Positions 2,641 through 63,194 of a stretch of 64,000 bases of DNA are shown here, one piece after another. This DNA is from Takakia lepidozioides (lineage: Eukaryota; Plantae; Bryophyta), in assembly GCA_030704615.1 (NCBI GenBank), contig CM060733.1, forward strand, positions 26,164,001 to 26,228,000. The letters run 5' to 3'. Each line of letters opens with the position of its first letter. The stretch's first letter is position 1. Below the pieces are notes generated by a model. It was not told where the DNA came from and did no database searches. It saw only the letters and a list, made by a program, of their open reading frames with translations. The position numbers and the translations under genes are program-made.

Positions 2641-3142
2641 TGCAACCGACATAGCACGTCCCAACCGATCGCAACAGAAATTCAAAGGATGCACAAGGAA
2701 CAAGGACCTCTTAAGCTTATAATTTGACCCCCTCTTAAAATACTTACTACTTCGAGTCACTTCATTCATATTGTCCGGTCGCGAATCTCCGAAAGGTGTA
2801 CTTTCCTCCCTCTTCTCCTCATAATTTTTCTCAAATTAATTGACAGCTCACTGAGCGGGCAAGCAAAATCACCTTCTTTTTCCAATGATGTCCCTCCGCC
2901 TGAGAGCCAGCACGTGCTTTCACAAGTGCAATTGCAAGCTCTAACTTCATCTCTGCTGAAGGCTGCCATGATGCTGCCATTGCAGCAATTGTTGCTACTC
3001 CAATTCTCACTCACAACACGTCTGCGCTGCCCTCGATTCCGTCCCCAATTGAGGCCTGGCACCTACTTGTCAAAACTGAACTCCGAGTACGGTAGGACGT
3101 TTTTCTTGAAATTCTTGGAAATGACTAAAACCGACAAAGGGG

Positions 3143-3310
3143 GAGTGTTGGGCGGTATTACATTTTTTAATGCCAGCGGGGTCCTGGTATTGAAAAATAT
3201 ATATTTCTCAATACCAGCCGGTTCCATAGTATTAGAATATACACTTAATTCTAATATCCACCAGTTCTCAACCTATTAGTGTGATTTTTCATTTGTGGAC
3301 GGGTATAAAT
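3143..3310 (+). mobile_element. hAT-like terminal remnant
   Basis: GAGTGTTGGGCGGT resembles the CAGTGTTGGGCGGTT TIR at 7757 and is followed by GGTATT/AATACC motifs. No partner TIR seen. Confidence 0.35.
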
Positions 3311-3317
3311 AGGTAAC

Positions 3318-6300: not shown

Positions 6301-7095
6301 AGAAATGCTTCCTCAAGTGCCTATCTTCCAAGAGTTTGACCATGCATGCATTTCCTGTCAAATCAATCTCCCAAACCTGCCAAAAAGAGGCAAAGGATGG
6401 TTCAGACTTAATACATCCATGCTGCCACATCCAGCCTTCAAACTAGCACTTGAATCGGCATGGGCCTCTACAGCCAATGAAGTTCTCTGCCCTATTGAGC
6501 GGTTTCAAGCCAAACTCAAACAGACAACCATCGCTGCTCAAACCCTCAATTCCCAAATAGCCAATCAGAGACAGCGCAGAGTACTTGCTCTCAAGAAATG
6601 TCTCGGAACATGCCAAAGGCTCTTGGAACTTGGGAAACTGGATACATCATCGCTACAAACATATCATGAAGCTAGGCGGAACCTTGAAGCCTTCGACTCT
6701 ATAAGGGAGCAAAAGTATAAATTGCAGGCAGGTATCAACTGGGCTTCAAAGGGGAAAAAAATGTCGAAATATTTCTTCGAGAAAGTTCAAGTTCGTAGAA
6801 CCACCCATATTATCTCAAAGCTGCAAGACCCATTGGGTCACTCTTCCTCAGATCCCAAACAAATGGTTTCAACGGCGCACTCACACTTTGCAGGGCTCTT
6901 CAAACGAAGACCGGACTCGCAAAGCATTACTGTGGCCAGGGAAATCTGCCTGCGCAATCATCAAACCAAGCTCACCCAATCAGGCGCAGCCTCTCTGGAT
7001 GGAGAATTCACTGAAACTGGGCTCTCGAAAGCCTTGAAACTTATGTCCAAACGAAAAATTCCGGGCATAGACGGTATGCCTGTGGAATTTTACAG
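3318..7095 (+). mobile_element. L1-clade LINE, degenerate ORF1 plus 3'-truncated ORF2
   Basis: ORF1 pieces with zinc knuckle CFNCGKQGHMKADC (3520-4056). ORF2 begins at 5606 and is cut at PGIDGMPVEFY by foreign sequence. Confidence 0.9.
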
Positions 7096-7126
7096 CTCCA
7101 TCTTGCACAACGACGCAATGGCGTGA
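5606..7126 (+). CDS. LINE ORF2 N-terminus: APE-type endonuclease plus linker, RT missing
   Basis: Motifs SWNIRG, LQEHK, NLYAPN, MGDLN, FTW, RLDRLY, DH; GKGWFRLNTSML; KYFF; PGIDG. Confidence 0.92.
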   Translation: MLVKIHSWNIRGIGSTQSSLKKAKLKTWLSPLLNQETIILLQEHKLDLAKISSLGDQLWPAAHSFWKPTIEGSRGGTAILLSPSIATLIQKEEMWFQGRAQFISIILPNAKGTIGIVNLYAPNSSAEREAFGENLHTKMESELSVEQWLLMGDLNMVECVQDRLGAAAQGLGDGEATSWQRIRNNFSLSEPSKARTADNHPCFTWTNNRACADICMARLDRLYLSPRLSPWAEMLPQVPIFQEFDHACISCQINLPNLPKRGKGWFRLNTSMLPHPAFKLALESAWASTANEVLCPIERFQAKLKQTTIAAQTLNSQIANQRQRRVLALKKCLGTCQRLLELGKLDTSSLQTYHEARRNLEAFDSIREQKYKLQAGINWASKGKKMSKYFFEKVQVRRTTHIISKLQDPLGHSSSDPKQMVSTAHSHFAGLFKRRPDSQSITVAREICLRNHQTKLTQSGAASLDGEFTETGLSKALKLMSKRKIPGIDGMPVEFYSSILHNDAMA

Positions 7127-8489
7127 GCGTTGCGCGTGAGCGAGCGAGCGTACGCTCACGCAGGAATGACGTAGCGTGAGCGTACACGTGGCGTGAGCGT
7201 CATGTCAGCATGCTGATGTGGCGGTAAATGATGACATGGCAGTGTCCGTCATCTGCCACGTCACCATTAACATACGCCGCCTATAACCGTGGATGGTCCT
7301 ATGACCGTGGAATTAATGCAGGGAATCTTGCCTAAATAGAATCAAGACGAGCATTGAGGCCTACAATTGCAGCATCCAACATTGTGCAATTACAAATGCT
7401 TGTTTCACTTTTACAATTACGAGGACGACAAAATATCCTCACAAAGTGTGCGCCATAAAGGCTGCCACGGGAAGACCTTCCTCCCTCCTCAAATAACAAT
7501 GAGAGTTAGGATCATCTTCAAAAGATGATTGTAGTGCATAGCGACAGCAAGACATGTAGACTTCGAACGGTGCAATGACAAATGTGCACTACCTAAAAGT
7601 TGTCACTCAGAGCTCACTCTGTATAGTTGGAGGCCATATCATTGCACAGCCGACGAATTGATGTGAATTACACATTTCAAATCATGGTCATCCACATACC
7701 ACATTACATAGTTCATGCTACCCATGTGTTATATCCCGCTGCAAAAGAGTATTGACCAGTGTTGGGCGGTTCTTGCCTTTGTGAAGGAACCTTCGGTTCC
7801 GGTTCCACAAATTTTTGAAGAGACGGTTCCGGATCCGGATCCGGTTATTTTTTATTAAGGCGGTTCCGGTCCGGTTCAGGTTCTGACTTTTTAACATGGG
7901 GGCGGTTCCGGTTACCGGTTAGTTGCTGGAAAAAAAACGCCGGTTCCCGGTTAGGTTCCGGTTCTTTTTTAAAAATATATTAAATTCTTCTAATTTTTTA
8001 TTCTTCTAGAAAATTAGATGAACTAATCTGATTGGTCATACTGAGAATTTTCAACTAAAACCAGGGAATTTATTAGTAAAACAGAAGTAAATAAACTTAT
8101 ATGTTTTTTGTGATTGTCTTTTATAGTATATATAACTAGTTATATACGCATGGTCTCCATTAAAAACGGAAAACCAGAGATTTTATAAGTTGTTGTACGG
8201 TGTAGCAAAGAACAACTAAAATAGACTAACTACATAAGGATCTTAATTCAAAATACAAAACAAATTAAACATGTGTAATTCTATGGTTACCTTTTATGGT
8301 GCAGCAAAAGCACAACTAAAAAAAACTACATAAATTTGTGTTTTATGGATGATACTTTGTCAATATAGCATACAACAAACTAAGTACACGGGATGTCACT
8401 GAAATTTTCAATAAAAATGACAAATAAACAAACTCCAATCAAAGGAGTATAGTGTAATATGTTGAACAATTATTTGTCTCTAAGACAAA

Positions 8490-10821
8490 TCAGTCTACCT
8501 CAAAGAGGTTTGCCTCTGCAATCAAGTCCTCATTCTCATCTAAGATGACTTCTTCCCTATCCAAAAACTCTTTCATGGAAGTACTAAAGCAACCAACTCT
8601 AGCATCATTTGGCCAATTCTTGACTACACTCACAAGCATATCAAGGTTTTCAATATTTAACCTGCACCGTCTCAAGTTTGTTATGACACCTGCAATACTA
8701 AAAACCCTCTCAGCTTCAATCTGAGATCCAACTATGCCCAAAATTAGCCGTGCCAAAAATCCCACATACGGAAAGAGAGACTCGTGTTCTTTCCACCATT
8801 TCAAAGGAGCCACGCACTCACCTTCATTTATCTTCGTCCTTCTGAAATGTGATAGTTGTTCTCTCACCACTGTCAATGTCATGTCTTCATTGTGGTCATG
8901 CACACCAAATAAGGACATCTCGTCCATTGTGGCAGTGGGCTGTGATTGGGCCGAAGTATCCGGATGTAAGACCTTGAAACACTTTACCAAAAGAGGCTCT
9001 AACACCATACTATCATATTGGGACACAATATGCAAAGCACGCTCTTTGCCCACATATTGTGATACCAATGACAACCCCTTGTAACGTGGGTCAAGCATAA
9101 GCGCGAGCATATTGTGAGCTTTGCGCGATTGAAACCCTTCCAAAAAAGAAAGAAATGGTTCCAAGACATATACCACCTCTCGAGCCATCCGCCATTCCAA
9201 CAATGTCAACTCTGTTGAGAAATCCCCCATGCAATGATCCACAGTTGCAGCCCCCCCAGCACTACTTCCTCGCATGCGAATTGTTGTGGCAATGGCTGCA
9301 TTAAGAGCATCGGACAACAACCAAAATCCCCCAGATTGATTCATAATGCACTCATGAACCACAGGCCCTAGAACTGTAGAAATTGATTGGGCAATGGCCC
9401 ACACTTGTGGACTTGGTATGCGAGATTGCAGTGCCAATGAGGTTTGCCTAGAGTAACAAGTGATTATGGCTTGCCTAAACTCCAAAGTCTCTTGGAAGAG
9501 GATCACCTTGGAAGCAAACCGTGTCTTCACCGGAGTCTTCAGTTTGCGGGGATGAATGCCGCTGTCCACACATGCCTTTGCCCATTCTTGTCTCCCTTTG
9601 CCACTTTTTTTGGTCCAAGTAATGGTTTTTTGCAACTCTGATTGGGCATTTTTTATAGAAACCGATCTCATATCTGCGCATACTTTTGCATCATTTGTTG
9701 CATACTGGCAACACTTGGACATTGCATGCCCAAAACAGCTACCCACAAATGGAGAATCCAACCCCAAACACGCACATGAGACCACCGAATTCAAAGCATT
9801 GGTCAAAGTGGCCAAGTTACCTCCCTCATCTTTGACGTAAGCAATAATGCGAGTATTGAGGCCATACTTCACAAGAAGATTGTTGACTTGATGTGCCATG
9901 GCAGCCCCAGATGTGTCAGGTGTCTCAAACATGCCAAGAGTCACATGACATTGCTCCCACTGTTCATTAATAAAGTGCGCTATGATGACAAAAGTGTCAG
10001 TTCCCCCTCTTGACATCCACAAATCAAAACTCACGGAGCAAGTAGCACAACTTTGAAGAGATGGGGACATGTAGCGCTCTTTCGTCTTCTCTGCCAAGAT
10101 TGGAATGGCCTCATTCACAAATGTCCGTCGAGAAGAGAAAACAATCCGAGGATTTTGCCTCAACACCATCCTTCTTAGCCAAGGGGATTCTACCAAAGAC
10201 AGTGGAACCAACTCCTTTGCAATGAATAAGACTAAATCCTCATTGAACTGCTTCTGTTGATCATCATTTTGGTTGTATGGAGTGGAGCTCCTAAAAAAAA
10301 AACTATGTTTCCAGGATGGGGCCGGGCCTCTTTTTGGCTGGCCTACGGGCCTTCTCAGGTCCAAGATTTTCCCTCTCAATCCACCTACGCAAAACAATGT
10401 CATGTTCTTGATCCACATGCTTTCGAAGGGCAGAGATACCATTGGTTTTGCCCTTCTTGCTTTCAGGAGTGACACCAACAGGATGACATAGAACACACCT
10501 CATTTGTTGTGGATTTGTTATGTCCACTGGAGCAGAGTCTTTTGTTGCATAGAATGCCCATGTCGAAGCAGTGCGATTGTGGGGCTTCCAAAAATCCCGT
10601 TGTTTGTCAAGTACTGGGAGCTGCGCCTCCACATCCAACACCGTGTGTGATGGCGAAACTGTGGAAGATGACATTGCAGCCGAGGCTTGATGAGCTGATG
10701 TAAATGAGGCTTCATGATGAGCATCCTCCGCAACATGGCACTCCACCAAAGCTCTCTCATTATCAACATTCATGTCAGGAACAACTTCCCTTTCTAGTTC
10801 ATCGAAAATATTGGGCTCCAT
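8490..10821 (-). CDS. hAT transposase (BED finger, DDE core, C-terminal dimerisation domain), frameshifted at the A-run near 10293-10302
   Basis: BED: WAFY...CVLC...LRKHVDQEH. Core: FDLWMSR, VKDEGGN, CFGH, KTRF, LDPRYK. hATC: LKWWKEHESLFP...QIEAERVFSIAG...RCRL. Confidence 0.93.
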
Positions 10822-18094: not shown

Positions 18095-19000
18095 TGCGAG
18101 TCTTCCATATTTGTTTGTCCATTTATATATTTACCATCACCTCTAAATCTTTACCCTTCGTTTTATCCTTCCCTTAACCCTTCCATAGGCTTAAGCCGGA
18201 CACTTAGTACCCTAAACCATTACTCTTACCATATACCAAAAACCTTTGTGTACTCCCATAAATCCAAAACCTAAACCCTTACCCTGGCCTTAATCCTTAC
18301 CCTAAGCTTAAACCTGACACTTACTACCTTAAACCATTACTCTTACCATATACCAAAAACCAGGTTAGTGTACTACCCTATTTACACTCCAAACCAAGTT
18401 ATTGTACTACCATGTGTGAGTCTTCTATATTTGTTTGTCCCTTTGAACTACCCTAAATCCAAACCCTAAATCCTTACCCAATCCTTTACCCTGGCCTTAA
18501 TCCTTACCCTAAGCTTAAGCCTGACACTTAATACCCTAAACCATATACCAAAAACCAGGTTAGTGTAATACCCTTCTTACACTCCAAACCAAGTTATTGT
18601 ACTACCATGCATGAGTCTTCCATATTTGTTTGTCCCTTTCTACCCTAAATCCAAACCCTAAACCCTTACCCCTCCCTTTACCCTTCCCTTAATAATCCTT
18701 ATCCCAAGCTTAAGCGTGACCCTTCGCACCCTAAACCATTACTTTTACCATGTACCAAAAACCTTAGTGTAGTACCCTACTTATAATAAAATCCAAACCT
18801 TATTGTACTACCATGTTACCTCTTGTAAAATTTGTATCATTCTCTTAATGTTTTCTTTAATTTTGTTGGATAACATATGATACAATGATTACATGGATAT
18901 CAAATTCCCCTTACATTTATACATTCTACAGAGGTTCAGAGTCGTCCATATTTGTTTCTCTCTTTCTATCCTAAACCCTTTAAAACCCTAAACCCTTCTC
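18095..19000. repeat. Degenerate tandem repeat containing telomere-like CCCTAAA words
   Basis: Unit start GAGTCTTCCATATTTGTTTGTCC recurs near 18099, 18418, 18613 and 18940 (spacing ~195-325 bp), with CCCTAAACC motifs. Confidence 0.75.
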
Positions 19001-49021: not shown

Positions 49022-50207
49022 CTATTCATATTATGATACCAAAAAGAGTATTACACATTTTTGATATCCAGCAGTATTAAGGATACCGTGTATTTATAAT
49101 GACGACAAGATACATGAATTGTAGTAGACAAAATTAGATATATGTTATGACTTGTACGCTAAATTTACAAACTGATTAGATTTTCAGTGGACGTTCTTGT
49201 TGTTTATCTAAGAGATAGGTTGACGTTCGAATGGGATTTAAATACCATATTTCTATTATTGATTGATTAAAAACGATGAATAAAATTATTAGCACATTGT
49301 TATATGTGACTGATCATGGCAAGGCATGCACATATTGTACATGATAAATAATTTATATTGATTAATACCTGTTATAATCACAGCGACAATAAATTCGTAC
49401 AATATTAATTATAGCCAAAGACAAAAATATGTATTGTGAGAGAGGGTGAATGTGTACCTCAACAACATTAATAGTACTTTGATGAAGAAGAGAGAGTCAC
49501 CTACATATAATTGTCTATATTAACTCTGCACCTTCAGTTTTTAAAACCAAAACTGACTAAACTAGTATACTATTATTTATAAATTTGTGATGTGAAGCAT
49601 AATGAGCAAATGGAAGATAGTAAGTTTGAGTTAAAATGTACAACACCATCACTATTTGAAATCCTACAAGTTGAACAGAAACAAAAATTCGCTATTAAGA
49701 AAAGGGAGGAAGTGCGGCGCTATAACTAAAAACAAGGAATTAAATTAACCTTGTGAGAGCATAAGGAGGGGGCCTACTGAGCATCTCTACATTATACACA
49801 GAAAGCCAACAATCCCTGTCCTAAAACATTGTTTGTTGTAGATAGAATTTATGAACTTAGTGTGTCCTAAAGAATATATGAAGTTTTAAAACTATGAACT
49901 TACTATAATTATTGTTATTTTAGAGGGTACCATCCGCTCACAAAATCAGGCCCCCTAACCATAGGGAGAGGTGAAAATAACCTCTTTGAAAGCAGAAGCA
50001 ATAATATAGATGATGATTAAAATACTCTCAATTGGAATAAAAATAAAATAAAATGAGGATGATATATTTAGACAGACTCGTGTTTGTATTGTACAGATCA
50101 TTGCAAGGTAAGATTATTTGAATTCGAATTTACTTTTACCTTACATATCAAATGATATAACATGATGCAAGCACAAAAACCGAACAAGTTGAAAAGTTTA
50201 CTGTATT

Positions 50208-50562
50208 TGTCAAGTTAAATAAACACAGTGTGAAACTAACTAGAATAAAACTAGTTATTTGTATTTAACACTTGGATTTAGTTCAAGTGTTAAGTCAGGT
50301 GTCAAGTTTGAGCTTGACACCTGAACCATCTTATCTTCACGAGAGCGTCAGTCGCGCAGCTCATCTCTCTCGAGTTGAGCCTGCGCGACCGAGCTCCTTC
50401 ATGCTTTAGAATCTGAGTGTGCTTATGTAGGGGTATAGGTTGTTGTGGGGTGGAGTCCCCATAGCTTGGGGTGCCCCTGGCTCGACCATTATCTTAAAGA
50501 GTGATAGTGATGGATTTCATGTTTCTTGTGTTAAGAGTGTGTGTCATTTAGCTTTCGTATCA
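50208..50562 (+). repeat. Terminal repeat A1 (355 bp)
   Basis: TGTCAAG...GTATCA; about 5 mismatches to 62114-62468. Confidence 0.95.
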
Positions 50563-50579
50563 CTCGAGAGAGCTGAGCT
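50563..50579 (+). promoter_or_regulatory. Putative self-priming primer-binding site
   Basis: CTCGAGAGAGCTGAGCT is complementary (16/17) to LTR positions 50358-50374. No TGG-starting tRNA PBS. Confidence 0.7.
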
Positions 50580-50869
50580 TGTTTCTGTGAGTGCCAGAGG
50601 TGAGTTTAGTTTTAGCACTTGTGGTTTTTGTTTTGAAAGTGAGAGAAGTGATTATCTGTGTTCAGGTAATTTTTAGTTAAAAAGATGTAAGTTTGGTCAC
50701 TGGAGCGATGGTTGGAAAGCACGGTGAAGCCTTCTACTGTCTATCAGCATTGTCATCGTGGTTGCCATCATAAGGCTGACGGTGTGACAATGGCGGCGCC
50801 TTCCAGTGCCTAGGTTGAACGTATATGCCCGGAGCATACTGGTCACCGCCAACTTGTGCATTACGCGCC

Positions 50870-51105
50870 ACCGCCGGTGCGGAAGCCGATGACGAAAGAA
50901 TATCCTTCTTGCTGAAGGAGTTGGATGGTAAAGATATTACGGAGGTGATTGCTTCCGGCAGGGAAAAGTTTGCATCTGTGCCATCAGGCGGAGGCAGCGG
51001 CAGCGGTGTTGTGGTGGCTCCCGCTGGTGGAGGTGGAGGTGTTGTTGTTGCACCTGCCGGAGAAAAGGAGGAAGCCAAGGAGGAGTCTGATGATGCCATG
51101 GGTGC
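50870..51105 (+). pseudogene. RPLP2: Captured 60S acidic ribosomal protein P2 fragment
   Basis: [40 protein letters not shown]...[12 protein letters not shown]. Confidence 0.9.
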
Positions 51106-51117
51106 GGCCTGGACGTG

Positions 51118-51263
51118 GTCATTGAAACGCGGGCTCCATTGCACACAGTCTGCATTTTCTGGCCCTGGAGAGCCGACATCCTCAACTGCCCATTCTTTTC
51201 CCTAATGCTGGATGATGTGACCGCCGGAGCTGCCACTGCTGAAGTCGCTGCTAGAGCCGCCAT
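51118..51263 (-). pseudogene. Captured N-terminus resembling a plastid transit peptide
   Basis: [48 protein letters not shown]; Ala/Ser-rich and ends in a cleavage-like RVSM. Confidence 0.55.
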
Positions 51264-53188
51264 TGTGGCTTGACAGGATGCAAAGGTGGTGGATGTGAGT
51301 TCATCATCTAGTGGAGACGTGGTAGCAAAGAAGACAAAGAAAAGAAACGGAGAGATGAAGCAGAACTTCAGATCTGCAGATGTTTAGATCTTCACTGAGC
51401 CGCAACATAGATAGATGAACTTGCTGCGGTTCAACCATGTTGACTAAGATCACTCCTTGAGCGGCCACCACGGCCAGCGAAAATGGCAACATATGTCACG
51501 GTCTGTTTTCAGTTGCACGTTTCGGTGGTGGTCAGCAGTGCACAAAAATAAAATATAGTCATTGCGGCTGGTGCTATAAGGCAGACCAAGATGTATATGG
51601 TGCACAGAGGTTGATGAATGAGGCCTAAGACAACAATCCGGGCCTGAAGTTTAAAGACCCCGAAACCTGTGATTACACCTGCGGGGACTTACTATTCGTC
51701 CTAGCATTGAACGTTGTGGAACTGGTCAGCCAATCCACATCCGAGTCACTGGTGGTTACTAGCAATGGGTGGGAAGCTGATGTGCGACTATAGCCAGCCA
51801 CTATGAAGGAGTAGTTGTGGGCTGGTTGATGTGAGGTTGTCTAGCTGCACATTGCGAGGAAGCAAGCAAATGGATGGACAGGGTCAGGCTAGATTTTCTA
51901 GCAAGTGCGTAAGCTGCTGTCCAACAAGGGAAAAGCTGATCAGCAGTAGAAGCATGAGATGCGACGTGTGTGACTTGAGATAGATGTGCACAGGGAAGGA
52001 CCAGCCGCGTAGCCTGCTTTGCGATCAGGTCTTGCATCAGGTCTAGGCGACAGTGGCGGCATTAATGTTTGTGAGACGGGGTGATCTCATATATTAACAT
52101 TGCGGCCTAGTGAAGGAAGACCAAGTGAGGCTCTACATACATGACCAGCGGTGCTTTGATCCGGAGTTGCAGTTAGAAATTGTGAGACAAAAAAAAAAAA
52201 AAAAACATTGTAGTACATTTGGCATTTCGGCCACCAGCAGGTGCAGGTCCAATTATATCACTTGGTCCTTGAAGTGGTACACCAGGCCGAGCTTCTCCCT
52301 TTTGATTTTGCGTTCAGTTGGAAGCCCGCTATCAGTTCTCAAGATGGGGCAGCTTCATCCCATCGCCTTGGTTCTGTGCATGTCCCTAGTCATGGGGACG
52401 TAATAATCACCCTAAGCCAGTTTAGAGTGGTGTTTGAGGTCCTGGAGAGCTTGAGCGTTTACAGCACCAGCGTATACTGTAACCCTCTCGGCTATGGCGA
52501 TCTTCAGGCTGCTCTTGGGGTATATGCCAACGGTCGATGAAGGTATTAGCACCACCTTGGAAATCACAAATTGAACGTGATGGTCTTATTGCTGTGGTTG
52601 ATATGTATTTGCCCAGTACATGAATGGTTGCGGAAAGCCATCTTGGTTGTGGTCACTCTGACAGGGCAGTAGACATGGGCTCTCATATAACAACAATAAG
52701 ATGGCATTGATAGCAGCAGCTTCAATAAGGTGTTCTCGTTCTGAAAATCTGGCATACCAACGAGGACATTACCTTTATCATGGTAATTCCACTGTGGAGA
52801 GATTGAGTTAAGAATCCAAGGAATTCTTAGGGAACCAGGGAACAGGGAACCAAGACAAGTATTGAAAAAAAAAAAGGGGGGGAGTTTTCCTTGTATTTGT
52901 TTTGTCTTGTTAAAAAAAAGAAAAAAAAAAGAAAAAAAAAAGTGTTATGTTTAAAGAGCCTGGTTGGTCATATCTTTGTCAAATGAGCTCCGTTTGACTT
53001 AGTTTTTGAGGGGATAGCTGCAGAAAGGGGAAATCTACCTATCTAGACCTGGTTTTTGTTTTTTGGACTCTGCTAAAAATCTATGGAATTTTTAGAGTGT
53101 GAGTGTGCCATGAAAGATCCACAATTCTGTTTTTTCTAGAACCTGTTTTGGTCTATACGAGAGACAAATTTGTGGATGTCCTCCTTGT

Positions 53189-53938
53189 ATGGCTGGGGGA
53201 AATGAGGACGTAATTGAAGGGCAGGTCTCGTCTCTTAGCCTGTGCACACAAGGGGACAAGATTTATGTTTCCCAAGGAACTCAGACTGATTTGAGTGGAG
53301 AACAGTTGGACGAGTTGATTGCATACTGGGAGTCAGGCATTAGCAGTAGACAACAAACTGCTGTAGTTGGCGTTGAGGGCCTCAATATTGCTTTGGACAG
53401 TCAGAACTCTGTTGGAGCCAGCAGTTCTGCAGCTGTAGGTGAAATACCAAAGTGGGTGAAAACTAGGCTTGGAACACAGCCAAAGACAGCCCCGGGGACC
53501 AAGGTGTTCAGCCACAAGGCCGTGGTGTACTGGAGTAGAGGAACAGGAGCTACACAAGTTTGTGCAATCAGACAGCGTTGCAGCCGGACACGCTCTGCAC
53601 AAGGCAACCACGAGCGGGGGTTCATTAGCAATGACAAGTTTGTTCTGTTTGAAGGAGATGCAGTCATTCGCAATGAGGACACCCGCAACCGTCTCAAAGC
53701 TTTCGAGTTGAGAGACTATCAGACCCTACCTTTGTTTTCTTTAGTGTTCAGTGAGCGGGAGATAGCAGAGTGTTGCTTTGTCTCTACCTGGCAGAAAGAT
53801 GAGGAGGGTTGGTTAGAGCGAGCTACTGTAGCTTGGGACAAGGTTAGTGGCAGGTTTTTGGACATAGATATACCTCCTACACCTTACTATCATGCAGAGC
53901 GAGGCACTTTGAGAGAAGTCTGGCAGTTGATAGCATAG
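53189..53938 (+). CDS. Extra ORF upstream of gag, unknown function (249 aa)
   Basis: Uninterrupted ATG-initiated ORF inside the LTR element; no recognised motif. Confidence 0.6.
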   Translation: MAGGNEDVIEGQVSSLSLCTQGDKIYVSQGTQTDLSGEQLDELIAYWESGISSRQQTAVVGVEGLNIALDSQNSVGASSSAAVGEIPKWVKTRLGTQPKTAPGTKVFSHKAVVYWSRGTGATQVCAIRQRCSRTRSAQGNHERGFISNDKFVLFEGDAVIRNEDTRNRLKAFELRDYQTLPLFSLVFSEREIAECCFVSTWQKDEEGWLERATVAWDKVSGRFLDIDIPPTPYYHAERGTLREVWQLIA

Positions 53939-54467
53939 ATCAGGATTAGATCTTGCTGGGTCGAGCTTCTATTCTTCCCCTCCATCTCTGTACTATTTTC
54001 ATTATCTTGTACTTGTAGTTGCCAAAGCCTCTCTTGGTGGAGGCCAATCAGTCCGGGGTTTTGGGCTGGGATATTCTGCAGGTCAGCACTGCAGATGGAT
54101 TTTGGTGTGGGGGTGTTGATGTTTTGATTTCTTGTGTTTGGATCCCCCCCAACACCTGCATGCTTGACTGTGCGCCATGTTGGTTTTGTGTGGGCGCTTG
54201 CTTTCATAGGGATTAGGCCGGATTTGATCACCGGTCAATCCTAGAGTATGCTGTCGGTGGTGAGGCTTGGAGTGATGACCAGCAAGACCACCAGTGTTTC
54301 TTCTATGGTGAGGCTGGGTTGATGACCAGCCAACCATATGAGTTCTTGCGGTGGATGCAGGTGCAGGTGCCCTGAGCCACTGGGATATGACCCTTAAACT
54401 ACAATAGGTGCCCACCCGTGTCACTATTAGAATTAGTACTAGAGCATTATAGTGTCACGTAGGGGAG

Positions 54468-56558
54468 GTGCACATTGTGAGTGTCATCACGGAGTTACCC
54501 AGGGGTTCTGAGGGGAGTACGACTACAGGCAGTAGCAGTGAGAGTGGGTTCACTAGACGAGGTGTTCGTTTTAGACCACCTTCACCTCCACCCTCAACTA
54601 GTGCAGAGTCAGACACAGACTCGGAGGCTTCATCAACAGGTGTGCAGTTTCATTCGCCATTGTTGTGGGACGACATGGAGGAGATGTATGGAGCTACCAA
54701 GGGGCCTCGTAGGTACTCTGGAGTTGTGGGCATAATCGAGTTGGATGACTTTATCCAGGAGTTCGACAGCTGGTGTGATTTGCAGCAGATGCGCAATCCA
54801 CAGCTATTCACCCCATTCATGGCGTGGAAGGGACTGTTCCAGCATTTGGAAGGCCCGCCTATGGACGACGAGTTCAGGCGAGGACATGAAGCAGAAATTG
54901 AGGAGTGCAGGATGTATTGGTCACCTAACTATGTCTCCATTACTCGAGGCATGACGCGACCAGCAGCTGCATCAGTACCAATATCTCCCACTGCCAGCAC
55001 TAGTAGTGGAACAAGTAGTGCCGGTACTTCTGCAGGTGGTACCAGTTCAAAAGGTGCTACTACTCCTCCTGCCATGACTACAACACATGTGCCTAGATTC
55101 AACCCGGTGGTGGAGTTCTTTCAGGAGTTGTGGAGGAACTACCAAGGTGTACGGACAGAGAAGCTGCGAAGTTTGCAAGACTTCCAGCGCAAACCCAGTG
55201 AGAGCTTGCGAGAGGCCTACACTCGTATGAGGCGCTTGATAAGTGTGACCCAAGGGGTTACTGAAGCTTAGGCAATCCAATTCTGGTATGGAATTTTGGA
55301 CAAGGAGCTCAGGAGAAGGGTGTGGGATGCAACCCTGTTACAAGCAGCCCAACCCACATTAGCAGATGTGTTTCTGCTGGCTGAGCGGATTGAGCTCAAC
55401 ATGGTGGAGGAGCGAGTTGTTACCATTGGATTTGGCAAAGACATGCCTGCACGAGGCGCAGCTGCAAGCCCACAGGCACAAGGGACTGCCCAACAGCGTG
55501 GTCAGGGGGGCAAGGTTTCCCAACCCAAGTTCCATAGAGCTTACAGAGAACCTCAGGTGCAGAGGCTCGTGGCATCTTTTGCAGGCCAATAGCAACCAGG
55601 GGTGATATGTTGGACATGTGGAGGACCCCATGTCAAGAGAGATTGCCCAGAGAGTGGCAGAAGGCCGGCACAAGCACAGCCTGCACAGTTGCAGTGTAGG
55701 CATTGTGGCAAGTATGGGCATGGAGATGCTCAGTGTTATGACTTGCATCCTGAGTTGCGCCCAGGCCAGTTCCAAGGAAACAATGGTGGCCGGGGGCAAG
55801 GTGGACCAGCCCAGAGAGGACGAGGTGGTCGGGCACAAGGTGCAGGCCAAGGGCAAGCTCAACATGGCCAAGGACACGGAGGTCAGGGTGTTGACCAAGG
55901 CATGGCCAACCGGCTTCAGCAGCTAGAGCACAGGCTCGCTGCCATGGCTACAGCTCAGGCGGTACCGGCTCCCAGGCGGGATGGTCCACCTCCTGCGCCT
56001 GAGGGAGGAGATATGGGAGGCATGGGATTCATGTGCGGAGCAGCACTACCACTAGTGCAGGTGGAGTCTGCTGCAGCCGTGACTCGAGGAGCAGCACGAG
56101 TTCCTGAGCCACGAGGTGCAGAGGTGGAATTGGATCCACAGCGTGGGGAGGCAAGCCGTCAGGCGAGGCTTCCTCAGTCATTCACATTGGCGGAGACAGT
56201 GTCGACGCCATCCATGGCACCTAGTTCTCGCCCGACTGTTACCGAGGCAGAGGTTACTATGCCATTGGGGAGAGCTACACGTGCATCACTGACACCTGCT
56301 ACTAAGGCTAGTGCAGCCGGTGTGTTGTTGGGGGCAGCCACCTCTGTGTGTCAAGCCTCACTGTTCTCGGCAACCATGATTGCGACGCCGGGGGTAAGAC
56401 CAGCTGCAATGTTCAGATTAGCAGCAACACTCTATGAGAGTGAGGAGGTCACTTCATCTTCTGCGGAGTTAGTGGAAGGTGTAGTGGCAGAGGGATCCTC
56501 GGATTTGAGGTCAAGACTACCACGGCTGCGCCATGGCAAGCTGCAGCTGCCAGGTTGA
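54468..56558 (+). pseudogene. gag: gag with two zinc knuckles
   Basis: FIQEFDSWCD; FQRKPSESLREAYTRMRRL; CWTCGGPHVKRDC; CRHCGKYGHGDAQC; Gly/Gln-rich tract; stops and frameshifts. Confidence 0.88.
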
Positions 56559-57050
56559 CGGAGCTGCCAGCTAGGCCAGCCTTTGAGCGCGCCATGGTGA
56601 CACCTGGAGTTGTCTTGTTAGACAACCAGGATGGCATTTTCACTTTGAGTGGACCGGCAGGCAAGAAGTACCGGCCACTGCGGGTCTTGTTGGACTCAGG
56701 AGCTCAGCCACTGATGTTGGGCAAAGCTGCTATTGCAGGTTTGGGCCTCATGGAGGTGGATATGGAGCCTTGTCCTTTCCAGATATAGACATCTCTGGGA
56801 GGATCAGAGCAGGCTCGGGGCATGACACGGCGTGAGTTGGCCATTGGACTACAGCCGGATCACCCTACAGATGGCTCAGTGATGCGAGCCAAGGCCATTG
56901 TGACAGACGCGGTCTCGTACGATGTCCTGGTTGATGGGGCAGTGTTGTACCCCATGGGCTTCACCCTGGATTTTTGGGAGGAGTCAGCTTCCTATAGGCC
57001 TGGATGGCAGTCAGGGGAGGGTCGTCGTGTACAGCTCCCTGTGACATTCA
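56555..57050 (+). pseudogene. Retropepsin-like aspartic protease
   Basis: RVLLDSGAQPLMLG ... YDVLVDG; in-frame TAG at 56786. Confidence 0.8.
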
Positions 57051-57404
57051 TTGGAGGTATTGCGGCTGCCCAGCGGGGTAGGATGCCAACACTAGCTGCT
57101 TTTACAGCTGCAGTTAGTTGGCCTGGAGAGTTGCTGGAAGGCAATGCCCATGCAGAGGATGTGTCACCTTCAGCAGAGCAGGATGACATGCATGGTACGG
57201 CGGAGTTGTCTGCCATGGTTGCTCACACTCCATTGTGGGGTACGAGCAAGGATTTGCAGCAGGTTGCTGATGGACGGGTGCAACAAGCCTGGGTAGAGGC
57301 CTTCGTACCGTCAGGAGAAGAGGAGAGTGCGGTGATTGCACCAGGACCACCTCAGTTGTCGCCATTGGATACCACACCTTTTGTGTGGCAGTGCCCGGAT
57401 GAAG

Positions 57405-58343
57405 ACATATGCCTTCTGGACTTGTTTGGCGGAATCAACACTGGATTGGCTGCAGTACTGCAGGCAGGTGTACGAGTTTGACGTTACCTATATGTGGAGA
57501 GGGATGAGACTGCACGACGCGTCTCACTGCGCCATGTTGCTCAGTTGGTACAGCAGTACCCTGATTTGTTGCCAGTGTCTGCAGTTCGTGAATACCAACA
57601 AGCCTTGTCAGCAGACATTTCGTTGCTGGGGGCGCAGGATTTGGAGCAGGTTGGCTCCATTGATCTGGTAGTGGCAGGTTGGCCCTGCCAAGGGCATTCA
57701 TCAGCCGGGCATGGCAATGGATTGCGAGACTCGAGAACGGGTCTATTTTGGGAGATGGGTGCGGGTTTTGCGCCACTTGCAGCTTCATCAAGCTGTATCT
57801 CCAGCATACATCTTGGAGAATGTGCCACTGATGGGTGATTCTCGGGCCAGGATGATGGCCAGTGTGCATCAAGTCCGGTCGTGGCTTGGGTCAGCAGTGT
57901 TGCTGGATGCAGCTGCAGTGGGATCACGGGCTCATCGTCCACGGCTATGGTGGACTAACTTGATGTCACCCGCACTGCTCAAGCATGCATTTGATGGGGT
58001 GCAGCGGCCAACACACCTCATAATGGACAACATTTTGGACACAGGGAGGCAATCTCAACATGTGAGACACGATGACCGTTCGCCTTTGGCAGTCGTCAAC
58101 AGGATGGGTCAACCACGAGCAGCATTACCTACACTGCTCAGCTTCCCGGGATCCCATGCTTTTCGGGATGGTGGACCTGGCCTCCTGTGGGATGCTCAGT
58201 TGCAGCAGTTAGTGGAGCCTAATGCCGACGAGCGAGAGCGGGCTATGGGGTTTTCCACTGGGACCATGGCGGTGCCTTCTCTTTCTGAGGCATCACGTCG
58301 TCAGGTGTTGGGGCAAGCAATGGATCTCAATTGCTTGACCTAG
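57405..58343 (+). pseudogene. DNMT3-type C5 cytosine methyltransferase domain within pol
   Basis: I LDLFGGINTG; IV DLVVAGWPCQGHS; GLFWEM(V)RVL; VI YILENV; VIII LLDAAAVGSRAHRPRLWWTNL; IX ERERAMGF; X RRQVLGQAMD. TGA at 57479; frameshift near 57757. Confidence 0.93.
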
Positions 58344-58779
58344 ATTATTAACTTGGCTATGGCTGAGCAACGTAGAGTGCGGAGTGCACTTCCCTTGACG
58401 GTCTCTCTGCCTACCGAGACGGTACAGGCAGCGAGTGGGGGCGAGCTGGTGAGGACCACGGGGTGTAGACATCCATGGCACACGTGGGAGGTGCTCGAGG
58501 TTCAGAGGGAGTTGGCAGCCAAGGTAGCTATGATGGATGAGGTTGGGGATTCTTCTCGGGTTGATGAGGTCCTCAAGGATGAGATGATGGGGCAGGATGA
58601 GGCCTTGTCATTGACTGAGCAAGCAGGGAGTACTGCTCAAGAGGTTGCGGCATAGCAACCACGGGACGCGTCCTCTACCTCTAAGCCCACTGGACTTAAG
58701 GTTGCAGTTACGGAGGACAATTGGGAGCCTGACATTGGACCCATTGTCACCGGAGGAGAGAGACAACGTATACGGTGGT

Positions 58780-60680
58780 TCCTGAGGGCTTACAGGAATT
58801 GCTTTGCCTTCAGTTTGAAGGACTTAGGAGCACTGAAGGGTCAAGAGATTCGCATTGAATTGGCTACTGACACGCCAATCTTTCGGAGACCCTATAGATA
58901 CAGTGACATGGAGAGGTCCTTGATTCAGATGAGAACTCAGGACCTTTGGGAGGCTGGTTTGGTGGAGCTATCTGGGGGAGAGTATGCTTCAGCCATAGTG
59001 ATGCCAGCCAAGAAGGATGTCTATGGCAATTGGACGGAGAGACGTATGTGCGGTGATTACCGGCCTGTAAATCGTCAGACCAAGTCCGATAGGTATGCCA
59101 TGCCGACACCAGAGGAGATCTTTGATGCCATTGGGCATGCCAAGGTCTTTAGCACGTTGGATTTACGATCCGGATATCACCAGTTGCCGATCAAGGAGGC
59201 GGATAAGCAAAAGACGGCATTCTGGGGGATCAATGAGCACGGGAAGGATTGTCTATACCAGTGGCGGTTCTACCATTTGGGCTTAAGAACGCTCCGGCAT
59301 AATTTCAGAGAGTCATGGACATGATTCTAGCAGGGGTGGAGTTTGCTCGGTGCTACATAGATGACATCATCATTTTTAGTGCTACGGTGGAAGAGCATGA
59401 GAGACACCTTCAGGGGGTTTTGAGCGTTTGAGGGCGCACGGATTGAAGTACATCCGGGAAAGTGCAAGTTTTTCCACAACCAGATGAGTATCTGGGTCAC
59501 ATGATATATCCTGGAGGATTGGGGTACAGCAGACTAAGGTAGAGTCCATTGCACAGGTTCCACGCCCCACGGATGTGAGCCGAGTTTGAGCTTTCATGGG
59601 GTTAGCAAACTATTATAGACGGTTTGTTAAGGGATTTAGTGCCATTGCAAAGGCTCTAACCAAGCTGACCAAGGTGGACCAGGAGTGGCAGTGGGAAGAT
59701 GAGCAAGAACAAGCTTTTCAAGAGCTCAAGGTGAGGTTGACCTCGGCGCCCATCTTGTGACGACCTATCAGGGGGCGTCCTTTTCAGCTGCATACAGATT
59801 GGAGCATGTTGGGGATTGGAGCATGTTGGGGCTTGGAGCGGTGCTCACATAGGTGGATGATGAGGGAAAAGAGTTCGTAGTGGCTTATGCTAGCCGCTCG
59901 AACAACGTTGCAGAGTCTAAGTATAGCTCATATGAGGGAGAATGCTTAGCTGCAGTGTGGGCCGTGGCACACTTCAGGTGCTATCTATATGGCAATCTTT
60001 TCACCCTTGTCACGGATCACCAACCACTCAAGTGGTTGATGGAGTCAGACAAGCTTACGGGGAAGCTTGCACGGTGGGCACTCATCCTTCAAGAGTATGA
60101 CTTTCAGGTGGTGCATCGACCGGGTTTGGTCAATCGCAATGCAGATGGGTTGAGTTGCAATCCATGCACGAGCCAACAGGATGACACTGGAGCTCGGTGG
60201 CATGGTGAGACGGACGAGGAGATGGTGCCTGGATGGCATGCATCTGCATTTCTGTGCATCTTGGCAGCGGAAGGCCAGGTTGGACCTCCAACAGGGATGA
60301 TTGTAGATCAAGTGTCTGAGGACCCTGAGGCCAGTAATGAGCAAGGTGGCGCCAAAGATATACATGAGGATTCAGTTGTGTTGGACTACCTCCGCACTGG
60401 AGACACTGCAGCCACTGTGACTGCCAAGGAGAGGGATCGGATCCTACAACGAGCCAAGAGGTTCAAGTGGGAGGGGACACACCTGCTCCGAGTGTGGGAG
60501 GATGGTCGAGTAAGGATTGTGCCTCACCCAACACAGCGGGCACGGTTAGTGCGGCATGCCCATGAGGAGTTGGGGCATTTTGGGGTGCGACGCACTCATA
60601 GTCTACTGCAGGGGCAGTATTGGTGGCGTGGTATGCACACAGAGGTGCAACAATTTGTGGCTAGGTGCATGGTGATGGAG
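58780..60680 (+). pseudogene. pol: RT, RNase H and integrase HHCC zinc domain; integrase core absent
   Basis: RMCGDYRPVN; STLDLRSGYHQ; KTAFW; YIDDII; LHTDWS; VAYASRS; TDHQPLKWL; ARWALILQEYDF; NADGLS; HEELGHFG...YWW...VARC. Confidence 0.95.
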
Positions 60681-61503
60681 AATCTCCACAGGTGACGACA
60701 AATGCGCAAGAGCAGCTTGACACCCAAGCACATCAGTTCAAGCTGGAGAATTCTGGAGAAGCAGAGAGCCTACGCGACTTTGTGGCGAGGTACTTTCTGC
60801 TCTACAAAAATGACCTGTTCTTTCGAGAGATACCGCATGCCCGCCGGAGCCACGAGTTCACCGACCAGCCGAACGCGGACAAAGCGGCAATGCGCCTTCT
60901 GTATAGGTAAATATGTGGTGCTCCTCTTTGATCTGTGGCCATTGTAGTCCCTGGAGTTCCTGGATGTAAAACGGCTTGTGTGGGGCATGACAACTGGTTG
61001 TGAAGAAATGGCTAAGTCCCTGGAAAAATGGCGCCGAATTTCCAGATTCGGGCTAGTATTGATATTCTTGAAGTGGATTTGTTCTAACTGTAGGATGCCA
61101 AGTACTGCAGGAGGGACGTCTACACCGCAGTTCATGGGCAGGAGGAACGTGCCTTATTTTGCCAGGGGGGATTTCATGCCGAGTCCAGAAAGGGACTACA
61201 TCCTTCCTACTTATGCTGCCCAGCTTGCTTCGGTGTCCATTAAGAGGTCTTCTGAACCTAGTCGTGTACAGCAGATTTTAGATGAGGCAAGCCTCAAGAA
61301 AATGAAGATGAGGGAGGAGGCAGCTCATTGCGATGCCCCAGGCGTCGCAAGTGGGGATTTTCAGGGGGGTTGGATCTACGACCCCCCTGACGTTGCCTTA
61401 AGTCCAAAATCTGCGACGCCCCCATAACGACGCGAGAGACGTTGCAGATTTGTGATTTTCACCATTCTGGAAATCCGCGATTGACGTCGCTGGGGCGTCG
61501 TTA

Positions 61504-61542
<39 letters not shown>

Positions 61543-61619
61543 CAAACGGTGTAATGCATAAAAAGCAGCATTGACAAGTGGCATTTTGGGCACTGGATGC
61601 AGTGGTATCTGCAAGTTTG

Positions 61620-61766
61620 AGGTGCATGTTGTGTGGGTCTGCTAAAGGGGCAGCCACCATGTTGGTGTGTGATCGATGCTCTAGAGGTTGGCATATGGGA
61701 TGCTTGACTCCACCTCTTGAGATGGTTCCGGATGGGGATTGGTTATGTCCACAATGCATTGGATAG
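61620..61766 (+). CDS. PHD finger (C4HC3) at the pol C-terminus
   Basis: CMLCGSAKGAATMLVCDRCSRGWHMGCLTPPLEMVPDGDWLCPQC. Confidence 0.92.
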   Translation, partial: RCMLCGSAKGAATMLVCDRCSRGWHMGCLTPPLEMVPDGDWLCPQCIG

Positions 61767-62026
61767 TGGGAGTGGATACAACCATGGGAGACTAACAAGA
61801 AATGCAAGGCCAAACTACTAGGAGACCTTGAACACACGAGATCCTGGCTCAAGTTCACAGATTGCAAGACGACGACTAACGATGGGGCTACTCTTGTACC
61901 CGGCCTCTTGGTCTACAGAGTTTGAGTACAACAGGGCCAGTGATAGAGGACTTAGTACGGCTGTGGCTATTACATCTTGTAGCTATCTAGAGTTAGAGGG
62001 ACCTATCCACCAGCTAGGGGGGCGAT

Positions 62027-62555
62027 TGTGGCAGACTACTTTATTGTGCATCTATGTGTGGTGTGGTTTGGACAGCGATGTAGTTGTATAGCGATATGTA
62101 TGCGTACGACAGCTGTCAAGTTAAATAAACACAGTGTGAAACTAACTAGAATAAAACTAGTTATTTATATTTAACACTTGGATTTAGTTCAAGTGTTAAG
62201 TCAGGTGTCAAGTTTGAGCTTGACACCTGAACCATCTTATCTTCACGAGAGCGTCAGTCGCGCAGCTCATCTCTCTCGAGTTGAGCCTGCGCGACCGAGC
62301 TCCTTCATGCTTTAGAATCTGAGTGTGCTTATGTATGGGTATAGGTTGTTGTGGGGTGGAGTCCCCATAGCTTGGGGTGCCCCTGGCTCGACTATTATCT
62401 TAAAGAGTGATAGAGATGGATTTCATGTTTCTTGTGTTAAGAGTGTGTGTCCTTTAGCTTTCGTATCAATTGTGGCAGACTACTTTATTGTGCATCTATG
62501 TGTGGTGTGGTTTGGACAGCGATGTAGTTGTGTAGCGATATGTATGCGCACGACA
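62027..62555 (+). repeat. 3' terminal repeats B1 (62027-62111), A2 (62114-62468), B2 (62471-62555)
   Basis: B is 85 bp, TGTGGCAG...ACGACA, with 2 mismatches between copies. Junctions CA-GC-TG and CA-AT-TG. Confidence 0.95.
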
Positions 62556-63194
62556 TATTTGATATGATATTTAGATATGATGGATTATGACAATTACTGG
62601 TTGTGGATATATGTATTTTTTGGTTTCATTTTTGGTTGTTTTTGTATTGTGACATATGTCTGAAAATATATTTTCTCATTTATATACAAAATTATTCATT
62701 AAATGTGAATGATGATTTAACTTCATTTTCAATTGGGCATATCGCAGTTACAATATATCATGTGAGTCACACATGATGCTAAAAGTTATACTTTTGTTTC
62801 ATTTGATTTAATAATGAATAATAGGCCAACATTATCACCAGTGAATTTTATTTACCTTTATATTTTCTATCGTGTCATAGCTACCGCCTTTTATTTGGAA
62901 AGTAAACATTTTTTAACGGCTGTAACCAGGACAACGAGGAAGGGTTAAGTTACCGGTTGTTCCATTAGCCCTTTTTCTCAACAAAGCTTAAGGAGCCAAC
63001 GCTACCTGAATCCGGCGAAAGTACGTCAAATTGCACGTGTGCATTAGGTAATTACATTGTTTCTATTGTTTTTCGCACAAAATATATTTCCAATCAAAAT
63101 GACCATCGGTTCTCAGAAGTCGTCACTAGCAATGCGAAGCAACGCGTAGCCCTAGTAAACAATAACACTAACTGTCTCAATTGTGCACAATAAG

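Follow-up and report, generated by a model that had tools for sequence, protein, structure and literature searches.

How might a retrotransposon use a DNA methyltransferase and a putative reader of histone tails when it encodes both, and would the two act as one unit? The question is raised by a broken Ty3/Gypsy element of Takakia lepidozioides (Bryophyta), located at positions 50208-62555 of the stretch analysed here (64,000 nucleotides; assembly GCA_030704615.1, contig CM060733.1, positions 26,164,001 to 26,228,000, forward strand), called the window below. An earlier note, made from the letters of this stretch, had placed a DNMT3-like domain between protease and reverse transcriptase (RT), and a PHD finger at the place of the chromovirus chromodomain, in a single pol polyprotein. 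Both placements hold, with Pfam matches to PF00145 (E 2.2e-8, on the piece 57482-57835) and PF00628 (Table 1). Self-comparison gives the repeat order A - coding - B - GC - A - B. The element shows the order Gag, protease, RT, RNase H and integrase and a Ty3-type RT (best PDB match, Ty3 Gag-Pol, E 4.4e-98), and its relatives carry a DDE integrase of the rve family, the core of which is absent from the window copy. We consider it highly probable that it is a dead Ty3/Gypsy copy of the KnitGypsy-Dnmt3 kind. The copy is dead, as previously stated: no fewer than five premature stops and two changes of frame precede RT, several more lie in RT and RNase H, and the integrase core is gone.

Judged by the modelled fold of an intact relative, the unpermuted order of motifs I to X and the catalytic residues, the methyltransferase domain is DNMT3-like. 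The window reads, in normal order, LDLFGGINTG, AGWPCQ, LENV, AHRPRLWWTNL, ERAMGF and RRQVLG; the six motif strings quoted in the earlier note are not these letters, although five of them do appear in a DNMT3A chain. A DRM identity was rejected because the motif order is not permuted. For METHYLTRANSFERASE, the C-terminal half matches 86 proteins of greater length, and among those with a named source Marchantia (72-73% identity) and Calypogeia (74%) come first, followed by Sphagnum and Closterium, in agreement with the land-plant lineage proposed from the sequence. With one half of the domain as query, 873 clusters were obtained at 50% identity, not all of which are shown to lie in retroelements; there are named members from liverworts, peat moss, charophytes and Volvox. 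When the Calypogeia protein was compared with solved structures, DNMT3A (8e-11) preceded DRM (4e-7) and bacterial enzymes such as HaeIII (4e-4), which is a ranking of similarity only. The domain of locus L041, modelled from an alignment of 81 sequences, reached a predicted local distance difference test score of 96.7, and all 30 Foldseek matches listed for this model were DNMT3A, DNMT3B or DNMT3C (best E 1.8e-19, 21% identity, template modelling scores 0.71/0.84).

The domain is not peculiar to this copy. Sister copies were viewed through the contigs of four sequencing runs and through metagenome relatives, of which the best 80 of 88 loci were fetched. In run X1, summed depth, which is not a copy number, was 0.70-1.10 million over DNMT and 0.80-1.13 million over RT, compared with 250 in the left flank bin; DNMT is as deep as RT, and so belongs to the normal make-up of a highly abundant family. 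It lies at the same position, without introns, in more than 60 loci, and on these grounds we rejected a host DNMT3 gene that a transposon had disrupted. Among viral contigs, 61 pattern matches included no relative. The intact relative L041 (9317 bases) carries two open reading frames (ORFs) spanning 976-8229, namely a 1369-residue ORF encoding Gag, protease and DNMT, then TAG CAG TTA, then a 1047-residue ORF encoding RT, RNase H, integrase and PHD. A Coleochaete transcript encodes an RT-to-PHD ORF.

In a sister clade the methyltransferase follows RNase H, with RT, RNase H, DNMT, integrase and PHD in a single frame in 25 proteins, and DNMT, integrase and PHD in 28 more, one of them from Volvox. 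Trees of RT-RNase H (63 sequences, support 0.99) and of DNMT (90 sequences, supports 0.96/0.96), both made with FastTree and rooted at the midpoint with neither an outgroup nor host DNMTs, split by DNMT position. An RT without DNMT (P0185) falls in the second RT-RNase H group. These data fit either one capture followed by a later move or two captures. In two proteins of this clade (P0059 and P0139), a G-patch domain was observed between DNMT and the integrase region.

With regard to its ends, the element departs from an ordinary long terminal repeat (LTR) layout, and the self-priming and permuted ends noticed earlier are borne out by the primer complementarity, the A...B-A-B repeats and the TATT duplications. 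The primer-binding site (PBS) adjoins A, and in four families that differ in sequence it is complementary to a stretch within A (10/10 and 16/17 in the window, 10/10 in L037, 15/15 in L041 and 12/12 in L061); shuffling reproduced such a match in 0 of 2000 trials for the window and 2 of 2000 for L037. In the moss-type family, the complement starts 32 bases after a TATA box. Repeat A1 is likely U3-R-U5, and its complementary stretch is the predicted RNA 5' end and self-primer. Because PBS follows A and the polypurine tract (PPT) precedes B, the standard LTR cycle, here self-primed, would give linear complementary DNA (cDNA) with B+A at both ends.

The copies found do not end in this way. In the family sampled best, all ten distinct 5' ends read flank-TG-A-PBS, none with B upstream, and a second family adds four more without upstream B. 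At the 3' side, B-A-B was found in four distinct ends of the first family and four to five of the second, and PPT-B-flank in eight distinct ends of the first, two internal-deletion ends and two ends cut by the contig border being left out. The complete A-coding-B-A-B layout occurs in the window and in at least eight distinct related insertions; among the loci, no B-A...B-A copy, and thus no pair of full direct LTRs as ends, was met. The 4-bp target duplication is perfect in four of the six elements with both ends and matches at three of four bases in the other two; one of these elements was joined from two allelic contigs. The end motif that is conserved is the B-A junction, CGACA-GC-TGTCA. 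Its 10-base palindrome is found in the window, in L002 and L016, and also in L061, which belongs to the sister clade; L041 has the junction with GT as spacer. The motif is thus shared between the window, L041, L061 and two families of the moss type. In the window it is the only perfect palindrome of that sequence, and the GACA..TGTC pattern occurs twice. The natural cDNA ends, i.e., the end of A and the start of B, lose CA/TG in the second family. Finally, the A-B junction is nearly invariant among copies, without joining scars, and its letters are those expected from blunt joining of PBS- and PPT-defined ends.

We propose that joining of the cDNA ends would create an A-B junction such as that at A2/B2, and that integrase would then open the resulting circle with two repeats at its left B-A palindrome, cutting both strands behind CA, leaving two-base overhangs like ordinary processed ends and yielding A...B-A-B. 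The A...B copies could come from one-repeat circles or from linear cDNA cut at both palindromes, and would be dead ends. Integration from circles has long been discussed for retroviruses and is generally thought to be minor. Two points weigh against such a route here. If a plain circle with two repeats were cut at either site by chance, A-B-A...B would arise as often, and none was seen among the loci, so that some asymmetry, as yet unexplained, is needed to tell two identical sites apart. In addition, the A...B copies (eight against four with B-A-B in the first family) could reflect B1/B2 recombination or assembly collapse. Permuted ends might also arise without end-joined circles, if the A-B junction were copied from RNA through an additional strand transfer, a route put forward for tyrosine-recombinase elements with split repeats, and integrase processed an ordinary linear product. 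The scarless junction fits this route, which would explain A...B-A-B only and never A-B-A...B. However, with PBS after A1 and PPT before B1, the standard cycle never copies B2, the junction has the letters of a blunt joint, and a templated route requires a second priming event or a dimer. We regard the strand-transfer route as doubtful, and lean slightly towards circle-type integration by the DDE integrase, which the position of the ends at an internal palindrome would predict. Among the contigs with termini, subfamilies differ in the 3' portion of A, and one single-copy contig runs from PPT-B into unrelated sequence.

The reading of the coding region turns on a stop between DNMT and RT. The earlier claim of a writer and a reader in one plain pol polyprotein is not supported in that form; it holds only across UAG 58653, which separates DNMT from RT within the same frame. 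Many homologs end 90-140 residues past the last DNMT motif, which is the position of this TAG in the window. Among 67 loci with an RT start, 13 lacked an RT anchor and 54 were anchored; in 38 of the latter, TAG or TAA stands in frame 43-54 codons 5' of the anchor with CAR-YYN directly behind it, whereas this context accompanies only 10 of the 1438 TAG/TAA triplets on the window's forward strand. The anchored loci are redundant, many of them belonging to the same family or the same insertion, and carry the independent weight of about five sequence contexts: CAA CCA (window and L030), CAA CCC (moss-type family), CAG TTA (L041 and L043), CAA TCA (L065 and L067) and CAA TTA (L072). The six-base context is retained in families with less than 50% DNMT identity. 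The UAG-CAR-YYA form, found in the window, L030, L041, L043, L065 and L072, is the type I signal for stop readthrough in plant viruses, of the tobamovirus-like kind (PMC3542737); the moss-type family has CAR-YYC. Decay as the origin of UAG 58653 was rejected, the stop being a family feature in homologs and anchored loci. As L041 is intact, with the stop in frame and no ATG before RT, readthrough is the simplest reading, and from these sequences we judge it very likely. Some observations speak against it: in P0049, P0075, P0085 and P0104 a single open frame runs from DNMT to RT; the 16 other anchored loci, decayed or divergent, lack the motif; and CAA CCC, the commonest moss-type context, is not a full CAR-YYA.

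Under readthrough, ORF1 would give a Gag-protease-DNMT protein, and the longer product would add RT, RNase H, integrase and PHD. Because the stop separates the ORFs, DNMT would be made at the level of Gag and packaged, in many copies, and PHD would sit on integrase; because DNMT ends ORF1 and PHD ends the ORF behind the stop, the two would act mostly apart. The PHD finger matches best, among solved structures, those of CHD4, PHF12, KDM5B/A PHD1, ATXR5, DPF3, PHF21A, BAZ2A/B and UHRF1. Trp two residues before His marks the K4me3 cage; of about 175 fingers of the family, 168 have Gly instead at this place and 165 have Asp after the third Cys. The class to which these best matches belong binds unmethylated H3 tails and lacks this cage. 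By analogy, PHD likely steers integrase to chromatin with unmethylated H3 tails, which would keep insertions away from active promoters. PF00628 was present in 119 of 120 integrase matches, obtained with a query that contained the PHD, and Pfam scans of the window and its relatives gave no chromodomain family, PHD standing at that position.

The alternative that writer and reader form one unit, with PHD finding a histone state and DNMT methylating, on the spot, either the new copy or the site of insertion, has in its favour that both domains occur in the readthrough product, that the single-frame proteins of the sister clade could keep the link, and that in host DNMT3 the steering is done by a PHD-like ADD domain reading unmethylated H3K4. 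In the window clade, DNMT and PHD are nevertheless kept apart by a conserved stop and roughly 1000 residues, and the protease of the element would be expected to cut the polyprotein, which makes this alternative unlikely. A true ORF end at the stop, with Pol made through splicing or internal initiation, is very unlikely in our view: an ATG does lie two codons past the stop in the moss-type family, and many Pol proteins are called with a start just before RT, but no ATG intervenes between stop and RT in either L041 or the window, and the six-base context is kept in frame in divergent families.

Would a packaged DNMT methylate? Of 174 domains of full length, 160 retain the Cys of motif IV (13 have a gap there), 167 the Glu of ENV and 161 both Arg of HRxR, so that the catalytic residues are kept across the family; Pro precedes the motif IV Cys in 81, this motif often reading WEC (Glu in 69). 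The catalytic Cys, Glu and both Arg, with the S-adenosylmethionine-binding motif, are retained in two deep clades. The ratio of nonsynonymous to synonymous substitution rates (dN/dS) is 0.12 for L041/L043 and 0.16 for L030/L001, two divergent pairs, and by this measure the domain is under purifying selection; synonymous sites are saturated in three further pairs. A dinoflagellate retrotransposon DNMT3 did methylate CG de novo (PMC5890265). On the other side, dN/dS reaches 0.48 between two close decayed copies, CpG depletion in the element (0.49) resembles that in the rest of the window (0.51) and gives no special methylation signature, and the Klebsormidium DNMT produced no methylation in yeast, a result that its authors called inconclusive (PMC5890265). 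On the strength of the conserved residues, the DNMT of the family is probably active. That it is a non-catalytic nucleic-acid-binding or structural passenger, as the yeast result and the frequent WEC might suggest, is highly improbable given the residues kept in two deep clades and the dinoflagellate enzyme.

A DNMT packaged in this way would likely methylate new cDNA. The purpose of this methylation is the weakest step: it might mask or protect the cDNA, or mark one of two identical attachment sites that contain CpG. Taken whole, the mechanism read from these sequences, from self-primed cDNA and packaged DNMT to circle opening and PHD-steered insertion, is at best somewhat more probable than not. 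The CpG in the attachment site is also the basis of a bolder, quite unlikely version, in which the lineage has moved its attachment site inside the LTR, the DDE integrase opens a joined circle, and the packaged DNMT3 methylates the CpG in the earlier-made palindrome so that only the other is cut. If this speculative version held, a switch resembling restriction-modification would operate inside the particle of a green-plant-wide Ty3 lineage.

The combination of Gypsy, DNMT3 and A-coding-B-A-B repeats is already known, as is PHD in Gypsy, which makes the novelty lower than the earlier note claimed; the features themselves are confirmed. KnitGypsy-Dnmt3 of Klebsormidium nitens was compared by its description (de Mendoza et al. 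2018, PMC5890265), and no named Klebsormidium sequence came up among the matches of the searches with family proteins. It has the same Gypsy domains, an unpermuted Dnmt3-related domain in Pol, the same DIRS-like repeat order and purifying selection, and its authors propose cDNA methylation (PMC5890265). Its DNMT lies in the same Pol ORF as RT, whereas in most families related to the window the two share a frame across a conserved stop. The main text does not contain the term PHD, and the parts consulted do not mention self-priming, target duplication or a junction palindrome (PMC5890265). It is reported from one alga, whereas the relatives found here come from liverworts, moss and further charophytes, and include a second clade. 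A paper of 2025 repeats this type of finding for streptophytes and dinoflagellates (PMC12344493).

Gypsy-7a_cRei of Chlamydomonas reinhardtii, like the window family, has a Gypsy Gag-Pol with PHD, and its insertions are 2.6 times more intergenic than chance; the legend names no methyltransferase, and its LTRs look ordinary, with subparts (PMC9940879). PHD fingers have been called widespread in retrotransposons (PMC6673714). The Tf1/Sushi and Tcn1 chromoviruses share the Ty3 type, a self-priming PBS, a chromatin reader at the integrase C-terminus and occurrence in mosses, but this reader is a chromodomain and their LTR ends are conventional; neither 'methyltransferase' nor 'PHD' occurs in the survey by Neumann et al. 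(2019) (PMC6317226). DIRS, PAT and Ngaro elements, including SymbioDIRS-Dnmt3, have split A...B-A-B repeats and many carry a methyltransferase, but they use a tyrosine recombinase, in contrast with the H2C2 finger, rve DDE integrase, TG...CA ends and 4-bp duplications of the window family (PMC5890265). DIRS membership was rejected on account of the DDE integrase and target duplication, the L041 ORFs showing rve and no recombinase family. Host DNMT3A/B (PDB 6F57 and others) have the same fold, motif order and catalytic residues; the window family shares 21-23% identity with them, lacks PWWP and ADD, and is fused to Gag-protease.

In a literature search that did not extend to Repbase, theses or the main supplement of PMC5890265, nothing was found on land-plant members, on a leaky stop or palindrome, or on a sister clade in which DNMT follows RNase H. 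These would be new here, including the spread to liverworts and mosses, and the sources outside the search may already show PHD, the stop and land-plant members. If these findings hold, methyltransferase capture is not an algal oddity, given the 873 clusters and their named members, and transposon-borne de novo methyltransferases may shape bryophyte methylomes and would inflate counts of host DNMT3 genes. A leaky stop would make DNMT a Gag-level component of the particle, so that the function of a retrotransposon DNMT could be tested on particle cDNA.

Table 1. Features of the Takakia lepidozioides element, in window coordinates.
Feature	Position	Strand	Remarks
Left target-site duplication, TATT, 4 bp	50204..50207	+	identical to 62556-62559
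Repeat A1, 355 bp, TG start, CA end	50208..50562	+	left element end; 98.6% identity to A2, 5 differences
PBS-complementary stretch in A1	50358..50374	+	see text
PBS, self-priming type	50563..50579	+	adjoins A1
60S acidic ribosomal protein gene fragment, captured	50867..51106	+	in low-copy 5' stretch; PF00428 E 7.2e-12
Accessory ORF 5' of gag	53189..53938	+	high-depth family part; 2 metagenome homologs at 34-38%
ORF1 Gag, zinc knuckles and aspartic protease, broken	54675..56998	+	tblastn to Marchantia P0006 from residue 1; domain map
Protease in ORF1	about 56627-56998	+
DNMT3-like C5 methyltransferase, C-terminal in ORF1	57407..58367	+	two stops, one frame change
In-frame UAG + CAA CCA, conserved	58653..58661	+	predicted leaky stop ORF1/ORF2
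ORF2 RT, RNase H, integrase H2C2 finger, broken	58656..60668	+	PF00078, PF17917, PF17921
RT in ORF2	about 58800-59506	+
Unrelated sequence in integrase-core position	60672..61592	.	about 920 bases
PHD finger	61611..61763	+	integrase C-terminus in intact relatives; PF00628 E 1.9e-12
PPT	62012..62024	+	adjoins B1; conserved, 82-94% in 17 loci
Repeat B1, 87 bp, CA end	62025..62111	+	97.7% identity to B2
B-A junction palindrome GACA-GC-TGTC	62108..62117	.	predicted integrase attachment site
Repeat A2	62114..62468	+
Repeat B2, CA end	62469..62555	+	right element end
Right target-site duplication, TATT	62556..62559	+

The remaining features concern the history of this copy (Table 1). Relatives carry about 320 residues, the integrase core, where the window has unrelated sequence; this sequence matched neither residues 1138-1459 of P0075 nor the compared loci and proteins, and its two scanned ORFs gave no Pfam family. 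Contigs of run X5 diverge from the window at 60674 and 61599, i.e., at both borders, so that loss of the core is not universal in the family. The replacing stretch is itself of high depth and ends near a 35-base C run, and it represents a non-autonomous subfamily of large size or else some other abundant repeat. The Pfam match of Gag is weak (PF03732, E 0.049), and the accessory ORF has neither a Pfam family nor an Atlas match. About 2.2 kb after PBS (50563-52800) contain a poly-A run besides the ribosomal protein fragment. In run X1, depth there is 0.8-1.6 thousand, against 0.15-1.1 million in the family core (low depth spans 50508-52777), and the stretch is likely host sequence that a small subfamily has picked up. 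Only 5 of 355 bases distinguish A1 from A2 despite the many stops and frame changes, which suggests that the copy was already defective and moved in trans.

Among the relatives, the C-terminal 200 residues of P0060, after PHD, show DPWAGTG and SPWF motifs without a Pfam match; we take these to resemble an amino-methyltransferase, possibly a second captured methyltransferase. P0032 and P0345 are family members under cyanobacterial names, probably from algal or plant contigs in bacterial bins. In L044, L046, L051 and L078-L080, family copies are inserted head-on into other family copies, a hint of targeting to their own kind. Elsewhere in the window, a LINE-like endonuclease/RT ORF (5606-7126), an apparently open 669-residue hAT-like transposase frame (8490-10499) and telomere-like CCCTAAA-rich repeats (18170-18760) were labelled by eye.

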